This document shows, piece after piece, positions 8,968-64,000 of a stretch of 64,000 nt of DNA. The DNA comes from an uncultured Bacteroidota bacterium (lineage in GTDB: Bacteria > Bacteroidota > Bacteroidia > Bacteroidales > P3), in contig CACYKY010000007.1 in NCBI GenBank assembly GCA_902775135.1, positions 56,751 to 120,750 on the forward strand. Direction: 5' to 3'. The position numbers and the translations under genes are program-made. Within the stretch, counting starts at the first letter, position 1, and every line of letters begins with the position of its first letter. The notes beneath the pieces are model-generated. The model did no database searches and was not told the origin of the DNA. It saw only the letters and a program-made list of their open reading frames with translations.

Positions 8968-10278
8968 ATGAAAAAAAGTACACTTTTTATCGCGATTCTG
9001 CTCGTATGTGGGGCATTCTCCTCTTGCCTCCGCAGCGACGACCTTGAAATGCTGCGCCACCCCATCAGCGTTACGGGCAGCGTAAGCCCGCAATACGGAG
9101 TCCCTGTGGCCAACGGAGAACTGAACATCAACGACCTGCTGGCGAGACTCAGCTCCGATTACCAAGGTCTCATCACCAACGACGAGGAGATTACGGTAGA
9201 ATACACCGCCAATCTGAGCGATACCATCTTCGCCTTCAGCCAGATCCCCAACCTGGCTCCCGCACCCGCGGCCCGTCCCGGCACCAAGGATGGTACGATG
9301 TGGTTCTCGAAGGACACCATTATCATCGACACCATCGACATCGACTTCTTCAACGATGTCTCCGACCTCGGCGGACAAATCAACATGGAGCACATCTGGC
9401 TCAGCATCGCCGTGCGTGCCTATGGCGAATGCCCCGAAAGCGTCCGTCCCTATGTGCGCGCCACCTTCGACAACCTCATCATCAGCTATGAGGACCACGA
9501 GGGCACGCTGAAGTCCTATTCCGGCCTCAGCGTCGAGCCGATCCAGATCACCGACATCACCGAAGGCTTCAACCACGACTTCGAGCAACTCGACGTGGCT
9601 TCCATTGCCAACGATATGCCCCGTCGCATCTTCACCCAGTACCGCATGCGCTTCAATGTCAGCTCCGAATTCATCACCAACAACATCAGCAACTTGAACT
9701 TCGGCGCTATCCTCGACAGCGTCCGTATGTCGCGCCTCATCTACGCTGCCGACCTCACGGTGAACATGCCCTTCAGCGTCCAATTCAACGGCCTCACCTA
9801 TTCGTTCAATATCGACCTTGGCGACGGCCTCTCCTCTGTCAACCTCGACTCCATCATGCACTCCATGGCCGAAGGCGTCGACGTCAACGTCGATACCGCC
9901 CGCTTCCGCATGGTCCTCGACAACGGCATCCCCATGGCTTTCACCCTCAGCGCCACCATGCAGGACGCCAATGGGCAAGACCTCTTCGACATATTCCGAA
10001 ACAAGGACATCGCCTCCGCCAATGTCGTCCCCTCCTCCAGCGACCCCAACCGCTTCCAAGCCTCCACCAGCGTCCAGAGCTCCATCGACGCCATTCTCCA
10101 TCAGAATGAAATCGCCAAATTCTATCAGGCTCGCACCATGAAGATCACCCTCAAAACCGACACCAACGGCAAGCACGTCACCATCAAACGCGACGACTTC
10201 CTCCGCATCAAGGCCTTCCTCATGATACGCCCCACTGTGGATGTCAACATCTCGATCACCGACAATGGCATTCTTTAA
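8968..10278 (+). CDS. hypothetical lipoprotein
   Basis: 436 aa. Lipobox MKKSTLFIAILLVCGAFSSC. Confidence 0.8.
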   Translation: MKKSTLFIAILLVCGAFSSCLRSDDLEMLRHPISVTGSVSPQYGVPVANGELNINDLLARLSSDYQGLITNDEEITVEYTANLSDTIFAFSQIPNLAPAPAARPGTKDGTMWFSKDTIIIDTIDIDFFNDVSDLGGQINMEHIWLSIAVRAYGECPESVRPYVRATFDNLIISYEDHEGTLKSYSGLSVEPIQITDITEGFNHDFEQLDVASIANDMPRRIFTQYRMRFNVSSEFITNNISNLNFGAILDSVRMSRLIYAADLTVNMPFSVQFNGLTYSFNIDLGDGLSSVNLDSIMHSMAEGVDVNVDTARFRMVLDNGIPMAFTLSATMQDANGQDLFDIFRNKDIASANVVPSSSDPNRFQASTSVQSSIDAILHQNEIAKFYQARTMKITLKTDTNGKHVTIKRDDFLRIKAFLMIRPTVDVNISITDNGIL

Positions 10279-35059: not shown

Positions 35060-35069
35060 TTTTTGACTA

Positions 35070-35107
35070 AACTACTGCCTACTTAACTACTGCCTACTTA
35101 ACTACTG
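35070..35107. repeat. 15-bp tandem repeat AACTACTGCCTACTT (2.5 units)
   Basis: Read directly. Fills the spacer between the DUF3822 stop and the rsmD start. Its complement (AGGCAGTAGTTAAGT) resembles the array at 57371-57405. Confidence 0.9.
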
Positions 35108-53769: not shown

Positions 53770-54348
53770 TTAACGCTTTTTAAGAGGGGAGTTGGGGGAG
53801 AGACGGTGTGCCTGGCGTACGCGGGTCATTTCTTCTTTGATACCGCCATTGGCAAGAAAATCAGACTTAAGTCGTTCTATCAATCTAAAAAGCAGATAAT
53901 CTGCCTGATGTATCAATATGATGGCAATGTTGGCAATGGTCTCGTCAGAGCGCTGTTCAGCGGCCTGTATATAGTAAGCCGGCTCATTATGAGTAGAGCA
54001 TATTTTGCGAGTCTGTTCCCAGCGTGGATCGCCTTCCGTCCACTGTTGCAACCCCCTCACACGCAAATAGTCTTCATAATCGACAAGCAATTCCTGCAAA
54101 CTTGCTTTAGCCACGTTGGTGAGCTTTATCTCCGTCTCCTTTGAGGTGGCGCTGGCGGCGGAGCCCTCGGCTATATTTTGTTTTCCACTTCGCGCTGCTT
54201 GTACCATCTGGTCGACGGTACGGTCGCCTTTAGAGAGATACGTGTTAGCGAAATAGAAGGTGAGATCGTATATGCACTCAGCTTTCTTGTAAGCCACAAG
54301 ACCCTTATAGTTGCCACGCTGGGGAAGGAATTCGTTGTTGGGGGTCAT
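53770..54348 (-). CDS. four-helix-bundle protein (23S rRNA intervening-sequence-protein-like) with suffix domain
   Basis: 192 aa. AARSGKQNIAEGSA and SLQELLVDYEDYLR are typical of the family. Confidence 0.7.
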   Translation of the reverse strand: MTPNNEFLPQRGNYKGLVAYKKAECIYDLTFYFANTYLSKGDRTVDQMVQAARSGKQNIAEGSAASATSKETEIKLTNVAKASLQELLVDYEDYLRVRGLQQWTEGDPRWEQTRKICSTHNEPAYYIQAAEQRSDETIANIAIILIHQADYLLFRLIERLKSDFLANGGIKEEMTRVRQAHRLSPNSPLKKR

Positions 54349-54423: not shown

Positions 54424-54513
54424 TTAGGGGCCTTAGGGGCTTTAAGGGCCTTAAGGGCCTTAAGGGCCTTAAGGGCTTTAAGGCCTTTAGGGGCATTAAG
54501 GCCTTTAGGGGCG
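54424..54513. repeat. nonamer tandem array TTARGGGCY (10 units)
   Basis: Read directly. The last units contain the stop and final codons of the 52-aa Cys-rich ORF. Confidence 0.95.
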
Positions 54514-54663
54514 GCTTTTGTGGCAGTTTTGGGGATTGTGGGGGCAGTTGTGGCAGCCGCAGGAACAGCCTCCCCCACCCTTTCCTTTCGTTAGTCGGAT
54601 GATCCGGCGGACGACGAAGAAAAGGGTGACGGCAAGGATGAGGATGACCAAGATGAACTGCAT
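54505..54663 (-). CDS. FeoB-associated Cys-rich membrane protein (52 aa; below ORF-track cutoff)
   Basis: Manual translation MQFILVILILAVTLFFVVRRIIRLTKGKGGGGCSCGCHNCPHNPQNCHKSRP. One TM helix plus a CxCxC..C tail, downstream of feoB as is typical for this family. Confidence 0.75.
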   Translation of the reverse strand: MQFILVILILAVTLFFVVRRIIRLTKGKGGGGCSCGCHNCPHNPQNCHKSRP

Positions 54664-54800: not shown

Positions 54801-57275
54801 TTAGAGGAGCAGGGTGCCCAGTTGGAAGAAGAGTGTGGAGACGATCCAGGCGAGGCCTATGGTGTAGGCCATCGTGAAGAGGGCCCATTTCCAGCGGCCA
54901 CTCTCGTTGCGGATGGCGATGACGGTGGAGAGACAGGGCATGTAGAGGAGTATGAAGAGCAGCATGGAGGCTGCCGAGAGGGGCGTCATGGAGCCCCGGA
55001 TGAGGCGGGAGATGCGGAGGGAGTCGTCGTCCTCCTCGGCGGGGGAAACAGAGGTTTCGGAGATTTCGGAGGGCTCCATTTCGGCGGAGGTGCTGTAGAG
55101 GACACCCATGGTGCTGGCGACGACCTCTTTGGCGCCTACGCCGGCGAGGAGGGAGACGGACTGGCGCCAGTCGAAGCCACAGGGACGCATGGCGGGCTCG
55201 ATGGTCTTGCCGATCTTGGCCATATAGGAGTTCTCGGCCTGGAGGTGGGGATCCTCGTTATAGGGGAAATAGGAGAGCGCCCAGACGAGGATGGAGGCAC
55301 CGAGGATGATGGTGCCCATCTTCTTGAGGTACTCCTTGCCCTTCTCCCAGGTGTGGCGGAGGACGGCCTTCGCCGTAGGCATGCGGTAGGGCGGCAGCTC
55401 CATGACGAAGGGCAGGCTCTCGCCCTTGACGACGAAGCGGCTGAAGAGCTTGGCCAAGAGGACGGCCATCACGAGGCCGAAGAGGTAGAGGCCCATGAGC
55501 ACATAGGCCGCATACTGCGAGAAGAAGGCGGAGACGAGGATGACATAGACGGGGATGCGTGCGGAGCACGACATCATGGGGATGACGAGCATGGTGAGCA
55601 GACGGCTGCGGCGGTCCTCGATGGTGCGTGTGGCCATGATGGCGGGGACGTTGCACCCAAAGCCCATGATCATGGGGATGAAGCTCTTGCCGTGAAGGCC
55701 CATGCGATGCATGAGCTTGTCCATGATGAAGGCCGCGCGGGCCATGTAGCCGGAGTCCTCCATGAAGGAGATGAAGAGATAGAGGATGAGGATGTTGGGG
55801 AGGAAGACGATGACGGAGCCGACGCCGCCGATGATGCCGTCGGCGAGGAGGGAGCGCAGGGGACCGTCGTCCATATTGGCGGTGACGGTTTCGCCCAGCC
55901 ATCCGAAGAGGGCCTCGATCCAATCCATGGGATACTGGCCGAGGGCGAAGGTGCACCAGAAGGTGACGAACATGAAGACGAGGAAGACGGGATAGCCCAG
56001 CCAGCGGTGGGTGACGATGGCGTCGATGCGGTCGGTCAGCGCATGGAGGGTGCTCTTCTCGTTCTTGACATAGCACTCGGCGAGGGCACCGCGGACGAAG
56101 GCATACTTGGCATCGGTGATGGCGGACTCGATGTCCTGGTGGACGTGGGTGTCGCCGCCGTGCTCGAGGCGGATGTGCTCGGCGTCGTCGACGGTGTGGG
56201 TGTTGCTTTTCTGGTACTCTTCGGCAATCTGGTCGCGCATCTTGAGGACGCTGCCGTCGGGGTCGCGCTCGGCGACATACTGCTCGAGCTGACGGTCGTT
56301 CTCGAGGAGCTTGATGGCGAGGAAGCGGGTGGAGAGGTCGTCGGAGAAGCCGTGCTCGTAGAGGTGGGTGCGGAGCTGCTTGATGCAGGGCTCGAGGACG
56401 GGGCCGTGATTGACGTGGATGTGGCGGAAGGCTGAGGGCCGAGGGCTGGAGTCGCCTTTCACCTGACTCTCGAAGACCTCGATGATGGTGTCGAAGAGAT
56501 GGTCGATGCCGTCGCCGGAGCGGCCGGTGGTGGGCACGATGGGCATACCGAGGAGCGTGGAGAGCTGGCCGATATCGAGCCGGTCGCCGCTCTTCTTAAG
56601 TTCGTCGTACATATTGAGCGCCATCACCATGGTGATGTCCATGTCGATGAGCTGCGTGGTGAGGTAGAGGTTGCGCTGGAGGTTGGAGCTGTCGACAACA
56701 TTGAGGATGATGTCGGGGTTCTTCTCGAGGATATGGCGACGGACATAGAGCTCTTCGGGGGAATAGGCGGAGAGGGAGTAGGTGCCGGGGAGGTCGACGA
56801 GGTTGAAGGTGTAGCCCTTGTGGGTGAAGGTGCCTACCTTCTCGTCGACGGTGACGCCGCTGTAGTTGCCCACACGCTCGTGGGCGTGGGCGGCGATGTT
56901 GAAGATGCTGGTCTTGCCGCAGTTGGGGTTGCCGACGAGGGCCACGTTGATGGTCTTGGAGCGCTCGGCGGCGATGTGCTGCATGGGGGTGACGTCGGGA
57001 TTGTCGAGGGGGCGGTAGTCGTCGTGGTGGGCGATTTCTCGCTGAGCCTCCTGCTCGGTGACGATCTCCACCTTCATGGCGTCGCTGCGGCGAAGGGAGA
57101 CCTCGAAGTTGAGGACACGGTATTTTATGGGGTCTTTCAGAGGGGCGTTGAGGATGGCCTCGACGGCGACACCCTTGATGAAACCCATCTCGATGATGCG
57201 CTTACGGAAAGCCCCGTGGCCCGAAACACGCACCACGACGCCACGTTCTCCTGTTTGTAAATCAGATAGTAGCAT
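54801..57275 (-). CDS. feoB: ferrous iron transporter, FeoA-FeoB fusion
   Basis: 824 aa. N-terminal FeoA SH3-like domain (LSDLQTGERGVVVRV), G domain (GNPNCGKTSIFN), polytopic C-terminal permease. Confidence 0.93.
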   Translation of the reverse strand: MLLSDLQTGERGVVVRVSGHGAFRKRIIEMGFIKGVAVEAILNAPLKDPIKYRVLNFEVSLRRSDAMKVEIVTEQEAQREIAHHDDYRPLDNPDVTPMQHIAAERSKTINVALVGNPNCGKTSIFNIAAHAHERVGNYSGVTVDEKVGTFTHKGYTFNLVDLPGTYSLSAYSPEELYVRRHILEKNPDIILNVVDSSNLQRNLYLTTQLIDMDITMVMALNMYDELKKSGDRLDIGQLSTLLGMPIVPTTGRSGDGIDHLFDTIIEVFESQVKGDSSPRPSAFRHIHVNHGPVLEPCIKQLRTHLYEHGFSDDLSTRFLAIKLLENDRQLEQYVAERDPDGSVLKMRDQIAEEYQKSNTHTVDDAEHIRLEHGGDTHVHQDIESAITDAKYAFVRGALAECYVKNEKSTLHALTDRIDAIVTHRWLGYPVFLVFMFVTFWCTFALGQYPMDWIEALFGWLGETVTANMDDGPLRSLLADGIIGGVGSVIVFLPNILILYLFISFMEDSGYMARAAFIMDKLMHRMGLHGKSFIPMIMGFGCNVPAIMATRTIEDRRSRLLTMLVIPMMSCSARIPVYVILVSAFFSQYAAYVLMGLYLFGLVMAVLLAKLFSRFVVKGESLPFVMELPPYRMPTAKAVLRHTWEKGKEYLKKMGTIILGASILVWALSYFPYNEDPHLQAENSYMAKIGKTIEPAMRPCGFDWRQSVSLLAGVGAKEVVASTMGVLYSTSAEMEPSEISETSVSPAEEDDDSLRISRLIRGSMTPLSAASMLLFILLYMPCLSTVIAIRNESGRWKWALFTMAYTIGLAWIVSTLFFQLGTLLL

Positions 57276-57301
57276 GAGTATACGATATATTTTAGTTGGT
57301 G

Positions 57302-57309
57302 CAAAGATA
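57302..57309 (-). promoter_or_regulatory. Bacteroidota -7 promoter box for feoAB
   Basis: The minus strand reads TATCTTTG, 27 nt upstream of ATG 57275. Confidence 0.6.
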
Positions 57310-57310
57310 A

Positions 57311-57337
57311 TAAAAAAAGGTGACCCCTGGGGTCACC
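57311..57337 (-). terminator. intrinsic terminator facing the AT-rich cassette
   Basis: Stem GGTGACC / GGTCACC (57319-57337). On the minus strand it is followed by T7 (57312-57318). No obvious minus-strand gene upstream of it. Confidence 0.55.
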
Positions 57338-57430
57338 ATTATTGGTGATTTGTGGTTTTGTTCTTATTTTTAGTAGTTAAGGAGACAGTAGTTAAAGTAG
57401 TTAAGCCAAATGTGCTGTTCTTGTTTTTTG

Positions 57431-57460
57431 GGGTTCTTCCTACAAATGCGTAGGTGATAC
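57431..57460 (+). repeat. direct repeat copy 1 (GGGTTCTTCCTACAAATGCGTAGGTGATAC)
   Basis: Perfect 30/30 match to 59300-59329. Weaker similarity extends ~20 nt leftward (CAAA.GTGCT..CTGTTTT). Confidence 0.95.
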
Positions 57461-57482
57461 ACAATAGGTAACTTCTATTAAT

Positions 57483-57502
57483 TGCCCGTAGGGCATTTCT
57501 TT
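57483..57502 (+). terminator. mini-hairpin + U tract (TGCCC-GTA-GGGCA TTTCTTT)
   Basis: Read directly. Sequence-related to 57534-57554. Confidence 0.4.
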
Positions 57503-57533
57503 CAATAGCAAATATCTAATTATCAACAATTAT

Positions 57534-57554
57534 ACCCCATAGGGGTTTTCTTTT
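57534..57554 (+). terminator. mini-hairpin + U tract (ACCCC-ATA-GGGGT TTTCTTTT)
   Basis: Read directly. Confidence 0.4.
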
Positions 57555-57697
57555 AAACGTATTTTCCGGTGAGTCCGACTACACTTCTGACAATCAGCGA
57601 AATGTCTATACTCTTTCAGCACTCCCTTCCGATACTCTCACGTTAACGATAAATTAGTCCTCTGCCACATTTTTTTTGCAGATTTAAATATTATTTG

Positions 57698-57705
57698 TAT
57701 TTTTG
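57698..57705 (+). promoter_or_regulatory. Bacteroidota -7 promoter box
   Basis: TATTTTTG lies 62 nt upstream of ATG 57767. Confidence 0.5.
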
Positions 57706-57766
57706 CACCTTGTAAAAACATTATATATTACATTGTCCATTCTTGAATGGAAATTAAAAAAAAAAA

Positions 57767-58909
57767 ATGTATATCAATTCTCTATTATTTATTCTCCTTA
57801 TCCCAACATCACCAACAATCGGTACAACTGAAGTTTGCCAACAATTCACACAAGATTCGTGTATACAAAAAAAAATAATACTACAGAAAGACTCATCAAC
57901 CTTCACTATTGTCGGAAAACAACAAGAGACCATACGGTATGATGACGGTGCAATAACCCAAATAAAACAAAACACAAAGGAGACCGCAAAAAACACTAAA
58001 AAGGGAGGATATGAAATTTTAACAGTTGTTGTTTCTGCTTTGGCATTGATTGTCGCCCTTATCACTTTGTACTTCTCACGAAAAACATTTAAATCACAAA
58101 AAATAACTCAACAAAACACAACTCCTATTTTCACCAAAGACAAGCAATTTGATGTACTATCTTCCATCGCAAAATCACTTCTGGACAATCTATTGGAAGC
58201 AGGGGCCACTAAACTAAAAATTCAAAATAGCACACACAATAGCATTCCATCGGAACTACTTTATCTAAATAAGCATATAGATTCCAGCGAATTGCATTTG
58301 GAACTATTTTATGATAACAAAGAAGAATTAGATATTAACCTTGAATCCAACATTCATATTACACAATTGTTAGTTCCTTCAAATTTCTCAAGAATGAGTA
58401 ATTTGAAAAACTGTATAGACTCCTACAATAACAGATGCAATATCTTTTCCAAACAAATTCAAGAGAAAGCAATTGATATTGAAGATATAAAAAAAGAATA
58501 CGACTATTATATTCTTCGTAATATAATAGAATTATTAGCTTTGACTGCCGAGGTGGCAGAACATATATATCCTAATAAGAAGAATGATATTAAAACACAA
58601 ATAATACAATACGTATATTTTAGAATGGTGTGGTATATCGAAAACGTAACTGGTCATCAAGTTGGTGACAAAACAAATTTCGACAAGGAGAAAAAAGAAA
58701 TGACTAAAGATATAAATGGTATCAACACAATATTTAACGGCTTTGATAATATGTGGACAAGATTACTCGGTAATTATAGATTCGCTTATGCTTTGCCTAT
58801 GTTTGAGAATTTAAAAATCGAAGATTTTATTGATTTTGTAAAGATAGATATAGCAGGAAAATATAGAAATAGTAATGCTCCATTCCTTAAATATAAGACT
58901 AATAAGTGA
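57767..58909 (+). CDS. orphan hypothetical protein, 380 aa, one central TM helix, very low G+C
   Basis: Only long ORF in the AT-rich cassette. TM helix ILTVVVSALALIVALITLYF. Lys/Asn/Ile-rich helical C-terminal ~265 aa. No motif I recognise. Confidence 0.7.
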   Translation: MYINSLLFILLIPTSPTIGTTEVCQQFTQDSCIQKKIILQKDSSTFTIVGKQQETIRYDDGAITQIKQNTKETAKNTKKGGYEILTVVVSALALIVALITLYFSRKTFKSQKITQQNTTPIFTKDKQFDVLSSIAKSLLDNLLEAGATKLKIQNSTHNSIPSELLYLNKHIDSSELHLELFYDNKEELDINLESNIHITQLLVPSNFSRMSNLKNCIDSYNNRCNIFSKQIQEKAIDIEDIKKEYDYYILRNIIELLALTAEVAEHIYPNKKNDIKTQIIQYVYFRMVWYIENVTGHQVGDKTNFDKEKKEMTKDINGINTIFNGFDNMWTRLLGNYRFAYALPMFENLKIEDFIDFVKIDIAGKYRNSNAPFLKYKTNK

Positions 58910-58956
58910 CTGAAAGAGAATAAGACGCCGCATCCTACTAAGAGAACAACCTCTCT

Positions 58957-59256
58957 ATGAAGATATATAAGGAATATCCCGCAACACACTCCATGGACAC
59001 TGATTGATACATAATCGATTCTGATGGGAATGCAGCCATCAAGCAGTACAGCGACAACGAACACTGGGGTTATTCTTCCAATGCAGTCAAAAACCATCTG
59101 CGGGTGGCTATTTGTGCATACTTAATGTTGGCATGGGCAAAAATCACTACAGCATCACCGAGGCTCGCTGGCCATCAGGGGTTTGGACTCTTCGTTGGCA
59201 GGATATTTCCGAGGTTCTTTTTCCATGCTTTTATAACGGCATCTTCTCGGAAATAA
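58957..59256 (+). pseudogene. remnant of an IS4-family DDE transposase C-terminus (in-frame TGA at 59005)
   Basis: Translation KIYKEY...AIKQYSDNEHWGYSSNAVKNHLRVAICAYLMLAWAK aligns by eye with the conserved IS4 tail LYKERWQ.E.FFKWIKQHL.IK.FYGTSENAVKTQIWIAI.VYLLVAI. Confidence 0.55.
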
Positions 59257-59299
59257 TATGCCTCTTTCTCCTAATTATTTCAAAGAGTGCTCTGTTTTA

Positions 59300-59329
59300 G
59301 GGTTCTTCCTACAAATGCGTAGGTGATAC
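59300..59329 (+). repeat. direct repeat copy 2 (GGGTTCTTCCTACAAATGCGTAGGTGATAC)
   Basis: Perfect match to 57431-57460, 1869 bp downstream of copy 1. Confidence 0.95.
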
Positions 59330-59589
59330 GTCCCTACACGACTCCACTTATCCATTTAGCGGATGAACCAAATTTTGGGGATTAAACTAATTATCGGATA
59401 AACATACTCCGTCAACAGCCATCATCTTCCCTTTCGGATTGCTAACTATTAGTCATGGGTTTTTGATCCTTTTCATTCCCATACCTCTCATTCCGATTGT
59501 GGCAAACGAGGAAAGGACGGTCATGCATAACCGCCCCACCCTTGACTAAAAAAGGATATAAATGATTTCTTACCACATTATTTCGACTG

Positions 59590-59597
59590 CAAAGATA
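59590..59597 (-). promoter_or_regulatory. Bacteroidota -7 promoter box, pointing toward repeat copy 2
   Basis: The minus strand reads TATCTTTG. No convincing ORF downstream of it. Confidence 0.4.
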
Positions 59598-59658
59598 CGA
59601 AAAAAATCCCAACTCCCAATGAAAAAAAACTTCTTTTGCCCATATCCCAAAAAATGTG

Positions 59659-59666
59659 TATCTTTG
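59659..59666 (+). promoter_or_regulatory. Bacteroidota -7 promoter box, divergent from 59590 box
   Basis: TATCTTTG lies 68 nt upstream of ATG 59734. Confidence 0.5.
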
Positions 59667-59733
59667 CACTTTATTTAGATGTACACATGCGCATACGAAA
59701 CATTATATATAACACGCTGATACTGAGGAGGAA

Positions 59734-59988
59734 ATGCCCCCCCCACTACCACGCTGTAATAGTGTAAGTTACAAAGATTCTCACCATTTCTTAACCCTCC
59801 CGTCCCTGCTCCTCGCGGCCTCTTCCCGTGTCGGCAGGGTTTCGTTGTTTCTCCTCGTCGCCCTCGCCCTGGCCTCCTGTGCCAAGGAGCCTGCAGCCTC
59901 CCCATCCTCCCAGTCTTCCTCTCCTGAAGAACCCCTCTCCCCACATCCCACATGGACCGACGACAGCACCAACAACTTCTGGAGCTAA
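59734..59988 (+). CDS. possible small Pro/Ser-rich lipoprotein (84 aa) with a C8 tract right after the ATG
   Basis: Lipobox LVALALASC. G+C-rich third positions. The N-region is unusually long (38 aa), so the start or coding status is uncertain. Confidence 0.4.
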   Translation: MPPPLPRCNSVSYKDSHHFLTLPSLLLAASSRVGRVSLFLLVALALASCAKEPAASPSSQSSSPEEPLSPHPTWTDDSTNNFWS

Positions 59989-60010
59989 CCCTCATAAAAC
60001 CATCCGTACC

Positions 60011-60181
60011 ATGTGCCTCTTCCGTCGACGTAAACAAGACCGCATCGCCCGCGACATAGCCGCCAGCCACGATATGCTGCCCGACTACCGCGCCGCCCGC
60101 CGCCAAGGCCTCTCCCCCCTCGAAGCCCTCGCCGAATGGGACCTCCTCGATGCCGAAGCCCTGAAAAAACTGCAGGGATAA
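60011..60181 (+). CDS. small hypothetical protein (56 aa)
   Basis: ATG 60011 lies within track ORF 59828-60181. Strong G+C third-position bias consistent with host coding. Confidence 0.45.
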   Translation: MCLFRRRKQDRIARDIAASHDMLPDYRAARRQGLSPLEALAEWDLLDAEALKKLQG

Positions 60182-60225
60182 CGGAGGAAGAGACGGGGTG
60201 TTACTATAAAATACTACAATAAACG

Positions 60226-61263
60226 ATGCCACTCAACAAAGACCAGATACTACGCTACCGCATCCTGAACGCTTGTTTCAAGGACACCTCGCGCCTTTAT
60301 GACATTAACGACCTTGTAGAATGTTGCCAGCGTGAGATGATGGAGACATACGAGAAAGGGGTAAGCAAGAGGTCGGTTCACAACGATATCCAAAAACTAC
60401 AATACCAGCCATACAACGTGGAGTTCGACGAAGTGTTGAGAAAACAGCACTATTACCGCTATGCCGACACTTCGTTCAATCTCGCCGTTGTCGAAGATCT
60501 TTCACCGCGCGAGCGCACAGCCCTTCACGATACGGTGGAATTCCTTCGCCCCATCTGTGATGACCCCGACAACGCTTCGCCATTAATGCAATGGATGTTC
60601 ATGAGCTTGCAGCGCCTCGAAGCCGGCGAACCCCTTGCCGAGAAATCACCCTGTGTGTCGTTCGAGAACAATAACTTGCTTGCCGGAATGGGTAACTTTA
60701 ACCTCCTTCTAAGTTGTGTTATGGAGCACAAGCCGGTAACCCTCCGCTACCGCTCGTTCCGCAGCAAGGAGGCCAAGAACATCAATGTCCACCCCTATTA
60801 CCTGAAGCAGTACAATGGGCGCTGGTACCTCCTGGCCACACCCGAAGCCCACAGCAATATAGCACCTTACGCCCTCGACCGCATATTGACCGTCAGCCTT
60901 TGGAACACGGAATTCCGTCCCTCTGACGTTGATTTCGATGCCCTATTTGCCGACACGATAGGCATAACCATCAACCCCGACTCCAAAGCAGAGCAGATTG
61001 TGCTGCGTATTGCGGCCAAACGATACCCCTATGTGGAAACAAAACCCTTCAGCGAGAAGCAGAAGATCGTAGAAAAAAACGACCAAACAGTCACCATATC
61101 TTTTCCTATGCGTGTGAATGTGGAGCTGATTTCCGAGCTCCTTTCATTCGGATGCGACATAGAGGTGTTGGAGCCTCTTACATTGAGGAATGAGATAGCC
61201 CGACAGGTGGAGGCTGCACGCAACCTTTATTCGCGAGTGCAAAAAGATGGCACTCCGAAGTAG
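60226..61263 (+). CDS. WYL-domain transcriptional regulator (N-terminal wHTH, BrxR/CapW-like architecture)
   Basis: 345 aa. N-terminal HTH region (ILRYRILNACF...RSVHNDIQKL). Central YLKQYNGRWYLLA is the WYL signature strand. Confidence 0.8.
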   Translation: MPLNKDQILRYRILNACFKDTSRLYDINDLVECCQREMMETYEKGVSKRSVHNDIQKLQYQPYNVEFDEVLRKQHYYRYADTSFNLAVVEDLSPRERTALHDTVEFLRPICDDPDNASPLMQWMFMSLQRLEAGEPLAEKSPCVSFENNNLLAGMGNFNLLLSCVMEHKPVTLRYRSFRSKEAKNINVHPYYLKQYNGRWYLLATPEAHSNIAPYALDRILTVSLWNTEFRPSDVDFDALFADTIGITINPDSKAEQIVLRIAAKRYPYVETKPFSEKQKIVEKNDQTVTISFPMRVNVELISELLSFGCDIEVLEPLTLRNEIARQVEAARNLYSRVQKDGTPK

Positions 61264-61303: not shown

Positions 61304-64000
61304 ATGGTACAAACCGAAGCACAACTGGAACAGCAGTTCCTTGAGAGATTGCAAGAATTGAAGTACACCTATCGTCCCGACATCCGCGACCTCGACTCGC
61401 TCGAGTGCAATTTCCGCGAGAAGTTTGAACGACTCAATTTCGTCACCCTTTCCGACGACGAATTCCGCAAGTTGCTTGATGAAAACATCACCTCCGACGT
61501 CTTCACGGCATCCAAGCACCTGCGCGAGAAACAGACCTTCACCCGCAACGACGGCACCACCTTCGACTACTCGCTCGTCAACCTGCGCGACTGGTGCAAG
61601 AATGAATACGAGGTGGTCAACCAGCTCACCATCAATACTGCCAATAGCCACCAGCGCTACGACGTCATCATCCTCGTCAACGGTCTCCCCTTGGTACAGA
61701 TAGAGCTCAAGCGGCACAGCGTGTCGCCACTCAAGGCTGTGGAGCAGATTGTTGCCTACAAGCAGGAGCGCGGCAACGGCTATCTCACCTCCCTGATGTG
61801 CTTCATGCAGCTCTTCATCGTTAGCAACGGCACCAGCGACACCATGTACTTCGCCAACAACAACGACGAGCACTTCCATTTCGACGCCACCAACTGCTAC
61901 CTGCCCGTCTACCACGCTGCCGACGAGCAGAACCACATCGTTGCCGGCCTCTACAATTTCTCCGACCTGATGCTCACCAAGGTGGCCCTCGGCGAACTCA
62001 TCAGCCGCTATATGGTGCTGGTGGAGACAGAACGCAAAATCCTTGTGATGCGTCCCTATCAGATCTACGCCGTCAAGAGCATCGTCAACCGCGTGCACGA
62101 GAACAGCGGCAACGGCTTCATCTGGCACACCACCGGCAGCGGCAAGACGCTCACCAGTTTCAAGGCTTCCACGTTGCTGAAAGACAACAAGGACATCGAG
62201 AAGTGCGTCTTTGTGGTCGACCGCAAAGACCTCGACAAGCAGACGCGCGAGGAGTTCAACAAGTTTCAGGAGGGTTGTGTGGAGCGCAATGCCAACACAG
62301 GAGCCCTTGTTGCACGTCTCGAAAGCGACGACTATGCCGACAAGGTCATCGTCACCACCATCCAGAAGCTAGGCAAAGCCCTCGACACCAGCAACAAGAA
62401 CAAATACTACCAGCGCCTTGAACGCATCAAGGACAAACGCATCGTCTTCATCTTCGACGAGTGCCACCGCTCACAGTTCGGCGACAACCACAAAGCCATC
62501 CGCGCTTTCTTCCCCCACGCGCAGCTCTTCGGGTTCACGGGAACACCCATCTTCGAAGAGAACAGCCACTATGTGCGTGTCGACGGTCAACAGGCGCAGT
62601 ACATCACCACCAAGGATGTCTTCCAGGAGGCGTTGCACGAATACACCATCACGCACGCCATCCGCGACAACAACGTCCTTGGCTTCAAGGTGGAATACTA
62701 CGACAATAAACCCTCCTCCAATAAGGCCACAGCCAAACCGCTGACCAAAAACCAGATTGTCAACCATATCCTCGACAACCACGACAAGCTCACCGCCCAC
62801 CGTCGCTTCAACGCGCTGTTGGCCACACCCTCCATCCCCGATGCCATCCGCTATTGCGAACTCTTCAACGAGGAGCAGCAGCGCAGGAAGGAGTCCGACC
62901 CCGACTATGAGCCGCTCAACATCACAGCCGTCTTCACGCCGCCCATGCGTAGCAGCAGCGACGAAGACCTGCCCCAGGAGGAAGCCGACAACCAGAAGCA
63001 CCCCGACGAGAACAACAAAGCGCTGAAAACCATTATCGACCGCTACAACCAGCAGTTCGGCACCAATTTCTCCGTCGACCTCTTCGACGAGTACTATGCC
63101 GACATACAGCAGCGCATCAAGGACCAGAAATACCCCAACAAGGACTATCCGCACGCCAAGAAGCTGGACATCGTCATTGTGGTCGACATGATGCTCACGG
63201 GCTTCGACAGCAAGTTCCTCAACACCCTCTATGTCGACAAAGACCTCAAGTGGCACGGGTTGATACAGGCCTTCAGCCGCACCAACCGCATCCTCGACGG
63301 CACCAAACCCTACGGCAACATCATCTGTTATCGCGACCTGCGGAGTGCGTTGGACGACGCAATGGTGCGTTTCAGCGGATACGACCCCGAGAAGAGCAAG
63401 GAATACTGGCTGGTGGAACCTGCCGAAAAGGTGGTGGAGAAATACCAAAAGGCCATCTCCAATCTGAAGACGGTGATGAACGGTATGGGCCTCGAATGCC
63501 GACCGGACGAGGTAGTCAACATCCCGCAGGGCGAGAACACCAATAATTTCATCGAGGCCTTCAAGGAAGTGCAACGCCTCTCGCTCAAGTTGGATCAGTA
63601 TGTCGAACTTCCCGAGGAGTTGAAGGACACCATCGAAGGGGCGATGACAGACGACACCTTGCAGTCGTTCCGCACCGCATACCTAGACCTTGCCCGACGC
63701 GGGCGTCCCACCGATACCGGCGCCAGAGGCCCGCGCACTCCCGAAGGTGACGAACCCGATTTCGAGCTCTCGCTCTTCAGCTCGGCATTGGTCGACTACG
63801 ACTATATTATGCACCTGCTGGCGCGCTACACCAGCACCCATCACGAGAAGGTGCGAATCACCAAGGAGCAGCTGCTCGAAATCCTTGCTGGTAGCGTGAA
63901 CCTGATGAACGAGCGCGAGCTCCTCGAAGCCTTCATCAAGGAGGAGATACACCAAGGCAGCGGCCTCACCGAAGACGAAATCCGTCAGCGCTACCAAGCC
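61304..64000 (+). CDS. hsdR: type I restriction endonuclease R subunit (EcoR124-like), 3' end beyond the window
   Basis: Manual translation shows 899 codons with no stop to the window edge, so it is absent from the ORF track. N-terminal nuclease region (YDVIILVNGLPLVQIELK). Helicase motif I GFIWHTTGSGKT, motif II FIFDECHRSQ, FGFTGTP, motif VI QAFSRTNR. Confidence 0.9.
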   Translation, partial: MVQTEAQLEQQFLERLQELKYTYRPDIRDLDSLECNFREKFERLNFVTLSDDEFRKLLDENITSDVFTASKHLREKQTFTRNDGTTFDYSLVNLRDWCKNEYEVVNQLTINTANSHQRYDVIILVNGLPLVQIELKRHSVSPLKAVEQIVAYKQERGNGYLTSLMCFMQLFIVSNGTSDTMYFANNNDEHFHFDATNCYLPVYHAADEQNHIVAGLYNFSDLMLTKVALGELISRYMVLVETERKILVMRPYQIYAVKSIVNRVHENSGNGFIWHTTGSGKTLTSFKASTLLKDNKDIEKCVFVVDRKDLDKQTREEFNKFQEGCVERNANTGALVARLESDDYADKVIVTTIQKLGKALDTSNKNKYYQRLERIKDKRIVFIFDECHRSQFGDNHKAIRAFFPHAQLFGFTGTPIFEENSHYVRVDGQQAQYITTKDVFQEALHEYTITHAIRDNNVLGFKVEYYDNKPSSNKATAKPLTKNQIVNHILDNHDKLTAHRRFNALLATPSIPDAIRYCELFNEEQQRRKESDPDYEPLNITAVFTPPMRSSSDEDLPQEEADNQKHPDENNKALKTIIDRYNQQFGTNFSVDLFDEYYADIQQRIKDQKYPNKDYPHAKKLDIVIVVDMMLTGFDSKFLNTLYVDKDLKWHGLIQAFSRTNRILDGTKPYGNIICYRDLRSALDDAMVRFSGYDPEKSKEYWLVEPAEKVVEKYQKAISNLKTVMNGMGLECRPDEVVNIPQGENTNNFIEAFKEVQRLSLKLDQYVELPEELKDTIEGAMTDDTLQSFRTAYLDLARRGRPTDTGARGPRTPEGDEPDFELSLFSSALVDYDYIMHLLARYTSTHHEKVRITKEQLLEILAGSVNLMNERELLEAFIKEEIHQGSGLTEDEIRQRYQA

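Follow-up and report, generated by a model that had tools for sequence, protein, structure and literature searches.

Between the feoAB genes and a type I restriction–modification (R-M) locus headed by a WYL regulator, a 64,000-nucleotide (nt) stretch of DNA from an uncultured Bacteroidales bacterium (GenBank assembly GCA_902775135.1, contig CACYKY010000007.1, positions 56,751–120,750; the whole stretch is called the window below) holds an AT-rich interval with one intact gene, encoding a 380-amino-acid (380-aa) protein, and a copy of a perfect 30-nt direct repeat on either side of it. Judging from base composition and DNA similarity, we conclude that this gene was horizontally acquired. It belongs to an unannotated family that shows a consistent and specific linkage to type I R-M systems and has a phage-borne copy. 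The two repeat copies are defunct left terminal inverted repeats of the same ISL3-family insertion sequence (IS) and not attachment (att) sites. Taken as a whole (that is, structure, origin and function together), the explanation developed here is moderately probable in our view; we are confident that the region between feoAB and the WYL gene is a graveyard of mobile-element fragments, and put the chances that the 380-aa protein is a defence accessory of some kind at about even.

Acquisition of the 380-aa gene

The gene and the block of DNA that travelled with it are as follows:

57674–58990 (1,317 nt), plus strand: acquired block with promoter, 380-aa open reading frame (ORF) and 81 nt of 3′ flank, delimited by blastn against contig L001
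57698–57705, plus strand: −7 promoter box of the Bacteroidota type TAnnTTTG (TATTTTTG), 62 nt upstream of the ATG
57767–58909, plus strand: intact ORF for the 380-aa single-pass membrane protein

Horizontal acquisition is indicated by base composition, the block having 31% G+C within a genome of 56% G+C, together with 89% DNA identity, promoter included, to a phage contig. The block aligns with positions 9907–11224 of L001 at 89.1% DNA identity over 1320 alignment columns (blastn; the same phage is found in L002–L005), and the identity takes in 93 nt upstream of the ATG with the promoter box, which in the phage copy reads TATCTTTG at the same place, and stops abruptly on both sides. The G+C content of the ORF is 30.8%, that of the entire window 55.7%, and the gene has 31–32% G+C in both host (56%) and phage (55%). 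A preliminary description of the locus, made from the sequence alone, had reported the long ORF with its own TAnnTTTG box and the AT-rich interval around it, and both are borne out (300-nt windows across 57250–59050 have 27–36% G+C versus 61–64% in feoAB); to the right of the interval, the WYL and hsdR genes have 50–56% G+C. The same description took the DNA between the repeats as an acquired single-gene module. Acquisition of the gene stands, but the repeats are not the boundaries of the module: the shared block is shorter, leaving 213 nt between it and the left repeat copy and 309 nt between it and the right one, with a hairpin-rich insert and a further 109 nt filling the left gap and the stub of an IS4-family transposase gene lying in the right gap.

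The closest homologue of the protein, P0002 (86% aa identity), is encoded on the phage contigs L001–L005, which also encode a major head protein, a head decoration protein, an SPP1-type portal, a DnaB helicase and a 1,435-aa protein. L001, with a capsid protein that has relatives in Cellulophaga, Riemerella and Porphyromonas phages, is a Bacteroidota siphovirus-like phage; within it, the gene is an insert of ~32% G+C in DNA of ~55% G+C, beside the head genes and on the strand opposite to its neighbours, and is therefore a moron (that is, an added accessory gene). Between the window and phage copies, the synonymous substitution rate (dS) is 0.26 and the ratio of non-synonymous to synonymous rates (dN/dS) is 0.24 (0.12 in the conserved motif and transmembrane (TM) helix, 0.21 in the C-terminal domain and 0.43 in the N-terminal ectodomain), and this purifying selection implies that both copies have been kept functional. 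On its other side, the phage gene is neighboured by an amidoligase (PF12224, phrog_2443) and a GATase-like protein (L001 11553–13067), a pair that may have a role in nucleotide or DNA modification.

Given that the family profile finds nothing in 2.9 million IMG/VR contigs and that the protein search finds no member in 50,697 GenBank phage records or in PLSDB, the phage copy is an exception. Cassette DNA likewise has no match among GenBank phages, nor has a 22-mer of the repeat in IMG/VR.

A family of membrane proteins

From its N terminus, the 380-aa protein consists of a weak signal-like segment, a variable low-complexity ectodomain, the conserved motif NTKETAxNTKKGGYE and a TM helix (residues 84–102) that is its single strong TM segment; in the family alignment, this helix is followed by a near-invariant juxtamembrane stretch (T..SQ..T..NTTP.FT), the conserved IDSSELHLELFY and a long helical region. 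Members that lack the signal-like segment have an acidic or neutral N-terminal tail (MIE.FAK.L.LN.WDW) and a strongly basic stretch (RRTLxSQRKTEKNT) after the TM helix. As both N-terminal architectures point to a large domain in the cytoplasm, we predict an N-out/C-in topology in the inner membrane, with the ~260-aa helical domain on the cytoplasmic side. This conserved cytoplasmic domain, residues ~118–380, makes up ~70% of the protein and includes the invariant D172, E175, H177 and E179, the ectodomain being short and variable. An AlphaFold2 model of the C-terminal domain is an all-helical bundle (predicted local distance difference test score (pLDDT) 84; predicted template modelling score (pTM) 0.84).

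A word-indexed search of 5.8 billion proteins yielded 8 family members, and a profile search of 1.84 billion cluster representatives yielded 211 at E <= 1e-3, 86 of them at E <= 1e-10; all 10 family clusters that were checked (10/10) come from metagenome assemblies only. On the basis of the dN/dS of 0.24, the scores of the C-domain model and the 211 family representatives, the 380-aa ORF is a real gene.

The preliminary description could recognise no family motif in the protein, and the searches agree, there being no significant match in Pfam, NCBIfam, PADLOC, PHROGs or the PDB or with Foldseek. PADLOC-DB v2.0.0 contains no family that matches at E <= 0.1; the best Pfam match, HN, is below the cut-off at 0.0084, and the 66 family members compared with Pfam share no family; the best values in NCBIfam (0.015) and PHROGs (0.0057) are not significant; and a sequence profile search of the PDB reached 0.012 at best, to a designed coiled coil. 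Foldseek comparisons of the full-length and C-domain models with the PDB and BFVD gave nothing at E <= 0.001, the best matches (E 0.2–0.8) being generic helical proteins. Pfam also finds no fused known domain in 10 longer distant members (490–665 aa), and the cytoplasmic helical domain has no P-loop and no catalytic signature that we recognise.

Linkage of the family to type I R-M systems

For the family, which has 211 representatives, ~10 genomic contexts were read:

P0003 (L025): hsdM–hsdS–gene, 11-nt gap
P0016 (L114): hsdM–hsdS–gene, 11-nt gap
P0004 (L030): hsdS–gene, 13-nt gap
P0008 (L031): hsdS–gene, 20-nt gap
P0007 (L026, L027, L029): hsdS–gene (22-nt gap)–hsdR N-terminal fragment
P0005 (L006): ~5 kb downstream of hsdR–hsdM–hsdS, in an island with PDC-S11/DUF4268, ADP-ribosylglycohydrolase, NUDIX and VWA genes
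P0154, a distant member (L113): two genes from an SpbK-like TIR protein
P0009 (L115): between a umuC-like fragment and rhodanese/GNAT genes
P0002 (L001–L005): phage

In five divergent lineages, the gene thus lies 11–22 nt downstream of hsdS, on the same strand, within type I R-M operons, although these hsdS-linked homologues share only 32–44% protein identity with the window protein. The five homologue lineages are therefore R-M-embedded, whereas the window copy, 1.3 kb upstream of the WYL and hsdR genes and with its own promoter, is not. The G+C content of family genes is 28–32% in every context, and the DNA around the R-M-embedded copies has 34–45% G+C, from which it appears that the home of the family is in lower-G+C Bacteroidales-like genomes and that the copies in the 55% G+C phage and in the host are imports.

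In L006 (1–9846), the DNA upstream of P0005 comprises hsdR–hsdM–hsdS, a 150-aa ORF, PDC-S11/DUF4268 (3e-114) and a 109-aa ORF, and the island continues with the ADP-ribosylglycohydrolase, a NUDIX hydrolase, a VWA protein and a 359-aa unknown protein. In L113 (211–2511), a 138-aa ORF separates P0154 (295 aa) from a downstream gene for a TIR_2 protein, whose match to the PADLOC SpbK model reaches 2.7e-53; the same superfamily of membrane proteins may here have another defence partner.

That the protein is a defence accessory is suggested by the co-transcription of the family directly after hsdS, the slot that prrC occupies in the classical prr locus. PrrC is kept silent by the type I enzyme to which it is linked, and a phage anti-restriction factor activates it (PMC2610378). 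The likeness to PrrC/EcoprrI lies in gene order: homologues stand directly after hsdS, with hsdM upstream of hsdS (L025, L114) and in one case an hsdR N-terminal fragment downstream (L026), matching hsdM–hsdS–prrC–hsdR. The proteins themselves differ, PrrC being a soluble ABC-ATPase joined to an anticodon nuclease and the 380-aa protein a helical single-pass membrane protein without a P-loop; identity with PrrC was rejected, as neither PADLOC nor Pfam matches it to the PrrC or AAA_13 profile. By analogy, silencing by the R-M complex and release by phage anti-restriction can be proposed as a model for the 380-aa protein, one that we consider doubtful though possible.

Inference of function from R-M embedding is supported by precedent, given that TgvAB of Vibrio cholerae VPI-2 and DarTG2 of enteropathogenic Escherichia coli are encoded inside hsd operons and are independent anti-phage systems (PMC11411939, PMC12255303). 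TgvAB is a type IV restriction pair and DarTG2 a toxin–antitoxin DNA ADP-ribosyltransferase, and neither resembles the 380-aa protein in sequence or architecture. The preliminary description had gone further and suggested an abortive-infection or membrane-acting effector; a defence-related role is plausible through the hsdS linkage in five lineages, the P0005 island and the P0154/TIR pairing, but the specific effector type remains conjecture for a protein of no known family.

Three other roles can be weighed against a defence accessory on the same evidence. The phage copy could instead point to a superinfection-exclusion (Sie) moron, that is, a phage accessory gene that blocks DNA entry or another early step from the inner membrane independently of R-M, the chromosomal copy being a phage leftover. 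Such membrane proteins are known from phages (P22 SieA, T4 Imm, lactococcal Sie2009), and the likeness to them is that the phage copy, the closest relative of the window gene (86% aa, 89% nt identity), is an AT-rich, promoter-bearing, opposite-strand insert beside structural genes for the phage head, encodes a predicted membrane-anchored protein and, like the window copy, is under purifying selection. As far as is known, however, Sie proteins are small and outward-facing, whereas the 380-aa protein is much larger and mostly cytoplasmic, with a conserved domain inside the cell and only a short, variable ectodomain; moreover, the family is otherwise cellular and R-M-linked, being absent from the IMG/VR and GenBank phage collections, and in most homologues the gene is transcribed together with hsdS as part of a cellular operon. 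We therefore regard an exclusion moron as fairly unlikely.

It is also conceivable that the gene has no defence role and is a selfish or neutral passenger, encoding for example an envelope protein, with its proximity to R-M genes reflecting the pile-up of mobile DNA in variable islands. The non-defence context of one homologue (P0009), the position of the window copy in IS debris and the lack of a match to any known defence model would all fit; an 11–22-nt adjacency to hsdS that is kept across lineages at 32–44% identity to the window protein, and purifying selection on the gene, speak against it and make it unlikely. Alternatively, the protein might modulate R-M itself, tethering or regulating the type I enzyme at the inner membrane, with the phage copy serving as a decoy or anti-restriction factor. 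Membrane association of type I enzymes has been reported, and tight co-transcription with hsdS, a cytoplasmic helical domain with no recognised catalytic signature and phage carriage (which fits counter-defence use) would be compatible with such a role. Nevertheless, the window and L006 copies lie outside the operon, and PrrC, TgvAB and DarTG2 in type I operons are independent defence modules (PMC2610378, PMC11411939, PMC12255303), so that we judge a modulator of this kind to be very unlikely.

The direct repeat consists of ISL3 termini

The two repeat copies form part of the following remnants:

57432–57466 (35 nt), plus strand: solo ISL3 left terminal inverted repeat with 6 nt of interior (repeat copy 1), matching L012 and L013
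59301–59369 (69 nt), plus strand: internally deleted ISL3 remnant, with the left inverted repeat at 59301–59329 (repeat copy 2) joined directly to the terminal 40 nt of the element

The window has exactly two copies of the repeat, GGGTTCTTCCTACAAATGCGTAGGTGATAC (30 nt), at 57431–57460 and 59300–59329 and in direct orientation, as described previously, and no such repeat is expected by chance (none in 100 shuffles). It grows to 35 nt when one mismatch is allowed (57426–57460 and 59295–59329) and includes a small palindrome, CCTAC-N6-GTAGG. A weaker similarity of ~20 nt that had been noted to the left of both copies did not hold up: 355/2000 and 157/2000 shuffles reach its score and only TTTT(G/A)G, adjacent to the repeat, is shared. 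Both copies are spanned, in an identical arrangement, in three independent assemblies of other samples (L014, L015, L023), and an assembly artefact can therefore be dismissed.

When a 22-mer from the repeat was scanned against bacteria and archaea (one genome per species), it matched the left ends of elements in two Bacteroidales metagenome-assembled genomes (L012 and L013). L012, from goat rumen, contains a complete IS that is bracketed by a perfect 8-nt target duplication (TTTCTTTT) and has the left inverted repeat GGTTCTTCCTACAAATGCGTAGGTGATAC..., the right end ...CCATTTAGCGGATGAACC and a gene for a 402-aa transposase with the domains DDE_Tnp_ISL3 (PF01610, 8.8e-74), HTH_Tnp_ISL3 and Zn_ribbon_ISL3; L013 shares this left end, after which the same transposase gene begins. 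The repeat is identical to the L012 left end (GGTTCTTCC...) over 29/29 nt and to that of L013 over 26/26 nt, and the DNA that adjoins repeat copy 2 (59330–59369) matches the L012 right end (L012 6211–6172) at 38/40 nt (95%). These 40 nt, which occur once in the window, are the C-terminal end of the ISL3 transposase gene with the right inverted repeat ...GGATGAACC.

As the repeat matches an IS end in L012 and copy 2 runs into an ISL3 right end, the two copies are not an att pair. A site-specific cassette, with the 30-nt repeats as attL/attR-like sites and an empty site that keeps one copy, might have been expected from a perfect direct repeat around DNA of foreign composition and from the palindrome in the repeat. 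It is extremely improbable given that the repeat is the terminal inverted repeat found at ISL3 ends in unrelated contigs, that copy 2 continues straight into the ISL3 right end and that the horizontally shared block stops 213 nt and 309 nt inside the repeats. Furthermore, no recombinase or integrase candidate is present between feoAB and hsdR, where no ORF has such domains and none is unaccounted for. An att-flanked integration cassette was accordingly rejected, also because both copies occur in all same-species contigs and related loci lack the whole region.

The window stubs resemble the ISL3 IS in a left inverted repeat that is identical over 29 nt and an adjoining 40 nt that match the right end, but they have neither a transposase gene nor target duplications and one of them is interrupted, and they are thus remnants and not a functional IS or composite transposon. 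No ISL3 transposase gene is present between the ends in the window (there is no long ORF, and blastn with L012 finds short end stubs only), and tblastn with the L012 transposase has no match in 80 feoB loci of related species (described below). Nor is there an 8-nt flank duplication, the flanks being TTTTTTGG to the left of copy 1, TGTTTTAG to the left of copy 2 and AAATTTTG to the right of the right end; without target duplications, the insertion history of the stubs is not reconstructable. One could still suppose that 57432–59369 is a single non-autonomous ISL3 derivative, mobilised in trans by a full-length ISL3 and carrying the gene as a passenger. The left inverted repeat at 57432 and the right inverted repeat that ends at 59369 have the correct inverted orientation, 1,938 nt apart, and contigs of several metagenomes break at 57485–57552 and 59211–59235, and also outside at 59835–59875, consistent with repeated DNA. 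We nonetheless find a cargo unit quite unlikely, as no 8-nt target duplication is found (TTTTTTGG on the left versus AAATTTTG on the right), whereas the complete IS in L012 has a perfect one, the unit is found at this locus only, and the second, internal left inverted repeat and the interrupted left end argue for decay.

Other mobile-element debris

The rest of the interval and its left edge hold the following:

57371–57405, plus strand: three copies of a CAGTAGTTAAG-like motif, at the edge of non-syntenic DNA
57467–57564 (98 nt), plus strand: hairpin-rich insert that splits the ISL3 left end, with two terminator-like hairpins (57483–57495 and 57534–57546)
57565–57673 (109 nt): DNA of unassigned origin between the ISL3 stub and the phage-like block
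59065–59160, plus strand: stub of an IS4-family transposase C terminus (53% identity over 32 aa; tblastn/PLSDB support)

In six other assemblies, the hairpin-rich insert runs 11 nt further (~109 nt in all) and is followed by CAATAAAAGAAGCTGGC, which is the ISL3 interior resuming after the insert with CAATA duplicated. The window lacks 37 nt, ATAGAACCCACCAATAAAAGAAGCTGGCTCGCCCCAC, at 57564/57565 that are present in these six assemblies (compare L015 3303–3339). As the missing 37 nt include 17 nt of ISL3 interior, the difference is a strain-level deletion polymorphism inside IS debris. The insert has imperfect GG..TTCTAT termini and, among the DNA that was fetched, is found only in copies of this locus; because several metagenome contigs break inside it, it may be a miniature non-autonomous transposon (MITE). 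The adjoining 109 nt match none of the fetched loci.

The IS4 stub aligns over 32 aa, at 53% identity, with residues 315–346 of a 392-aa Prevotella nigrescens IS4-family transposase (WP_115098571.1; E 1.5e-4 with the whole window as target), and two weak tblastn matches in PLSDB both fall on genes annotated as IS4 family. Of the decayed IS4-type transposase tail described previously, a short stub of ~32 codons is thus supported and anything longer is not upheld, Pfam and NCBIfam detecting nothing. The decayed IS4 remnant probably spans ~58991–59300, although no convincing pair of IS4 inverted repeats brackets either the stub or the gene block.

The CAGTAGTTAAG-like motif has six matches in the window at <=1 mismatch (0.24 expected), a second triplet lying in intergenic DNA at 35067–35107 (minus strand) with a 15-nt period; the motif may represent an intergenic repeat specific to the species or an array of operators.

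A species-specific island beside feoAB

To the left, the island abuts the native upstream region of feoAB:

54801–57275, minus strand: feoAB genes, left of the interval
57290–57364, minus strand: native feoAB upstream region, 83–91% identical to DNA upstream of feoB in L033, L049 and L050
57302–57309, minus strand: TAnnTTTG promoter box of the feoAB upstream region
57319–57337: hairpin, terminator-like on both strands, part of the conserved feoAB upstream region

Same-species contigs, obtained by exact-protein look-ups with the WYL and FeoB proteins, are 99.6–100% identical and all carry the structure. A metagenome scan anchored on FeoB gave 80 loci of related species (FeoB 52–87% identical), in which the gene, WYL and hsdR are absent within 7 kb of feoB. 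The upstream neighbours of feoB differ among these 80 loci, synteny not being kept, and what is shared with the window is the promoter and hairpin only, up to ~57364; the DNA to the right of ~57365 is therefore a species-specific island. The hairpin at 57319–57337 had been read as an outward-facing terminator that fences the cassette; the hairpin is real but belongs to the conserved feoAB upstream region and not to a cassette.

An empty-site allele with a single repeat copy, suggested earlier as a check, was found neither among the same-species contigs nor among the 80 feoB loci. Such a site is not to be expected, and no empty-site inference is possible, given that the same-species contigs carry the structure and the related loci lack the whole region and have different neighbours. 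In the closest related species (L033 561–3466, FeoB 87% identical), feoAB is preceded by rho and by a gene that, read by eye, looks threonine-aldolase-like; the terminator hairpin of the latter corresponds to the window hairpin 57319–57337, and in the window the island replaces those genes.

The R-M operon of the window

To the right, the interval leads into the R-M operon:

59370–60225, plus strand: region upstream of WYL, with TAnnTTTG boxes and small ORFs
60226–61263, plus strand: WYL-WCX regulator gene (PF13280 9.7e-15, PF25583 2.7e-13; PADLOC WYL models)
61304–64000, plus strand: type I R-M hsdR, with HSDR_N, SWI2_SNF2, T1R_D3-like and EcoR124_C domains, running off the window

On an identical 185-kb contig (L015), the operon order is WYL-WCX, hsdR, hsdS, a 428-aa protein and hsdM. 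The 428-aa AAA_13 protein (L015 11317–12603) matches the PADLOC PrrC model at 5.7e-96, which makes this a WYL-headed type I R-M and anticodon-nuclease locus; the slot after hsdS, occupied by the studied family in other lineages, is held by PrrC in the operon of the window. The 380-aa gene lies 1.3 kb upstream of WYL, with IS debris and small ORFs between.

BrxR and CapW have been described as WYL-helix-turn-helix (HTH) repressors of defence systems (PMC12255303). The window regulator resembles them in having WYL and WCX domains and in heading a defence operon, and differs in that this operon is type I R-M with PrrC and not BREX or CBASS; nothing links it to the 380-aa gene, which has its own promoter. 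An N-terminal HTH is presumed for the WYL-WCX regulator from its likeness to BrxR/CapW, although none was detected.

Between the ISL3 stub and WYL there are back-to-back TAnnTTTG promoter-like boxes (59590–59597, minus strand; 59659–59666, plus strand) and two small unannotated ORFs (59734–59988 and 60011–60181), which have no Pfam match. One small ORF upstream of WYL (84–100 aa) has a lipoprotein-like LALASC signal, and the 56-aa ORF directly upstream of WYL is called as a gene in other assemblies. An Rfam scan of 57200–60300 gave a single match at chance level. Beyond the other side of the interval, a 9-nt tandem repeat, TTAAGGGCC (54424–54510; 9.8 copies, 83% matches), lies between a 23S-rRNA-IVP-like four-helix-bundle gene (53770–54348, minus strand) and a small Cys-rich FeoB-associated ORF (54505–54663, minus strand).

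Proposed origin and function

We propose that the 380-aa gene moved between phage and host, in either direction, and was then fixed at an IS-rich defence-island junction by IS-mediated or illegitimate recombination, after which the flanking IS copies would have decayed. Its linkage in other genomes suggests that the protein may be an accessory anti-phage protein coupled to type I R-M and anchored at the inner membrane, where it could back up restriction as an effector or a sensor, through abortive infection or exclusion. A guard logic of the PrrC kind, argued by analogy, is tentative. Equally tentative is the fullest form of the proposal, in which the protein would be the founding member of a previously undescribed class of membrane-anchored sensors or effectors that are coupled to type I R-M. 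Encoded in the PrrC slot and kept latent by the Hsd complex at the inner membrane, such a protein would, once a phage disables restriction, trigger abortive infection or exclusion at the membrane; a Bacteroidota phage would have captured a copy to exclude rivals or as a decoy directed at the version of the host.

Several observations weigh against this scenario. The window gene is outside the operon, with its own promoter and with IS debris between it and WYL, so that its position beside R-M genes could be a coincidence, and the hsdS-adjacent slot of the operon is already filled by PrrC. The five hsdS-linked contexts may represent one conserved ancestral arrangement and not independent events, and the context of P0009 has no R-M system in view. 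The protein has no sequence or fold similarity to known defence proteins (PADLOC v2; Foldseek best E 0.2–0.8), and neither ISL3 stub has an 8-nt target duplication.

R-M-embedded accessory defence genes are a known kind, of which PrrC, TgvAB and DarTG2 have already been described. A more general point is that a perfect direct repeat flanking foreign DNA may stem from IS termini and not from att sites; the repeat itself is ordinary. As relatives of the 380-aa gene sit inside type I R-M operons, the gene is a testable candidate anti-phage gene. If the proposal is true, it would add a membrane-anchored type to the R-M-embedded defence genes, in rumen and gut Bacteroidales, in which, to our knowledge, little defence biology has been experimentally tested, and would provide a concrete phage–host pair in which phage capture of defence genes could be studied.

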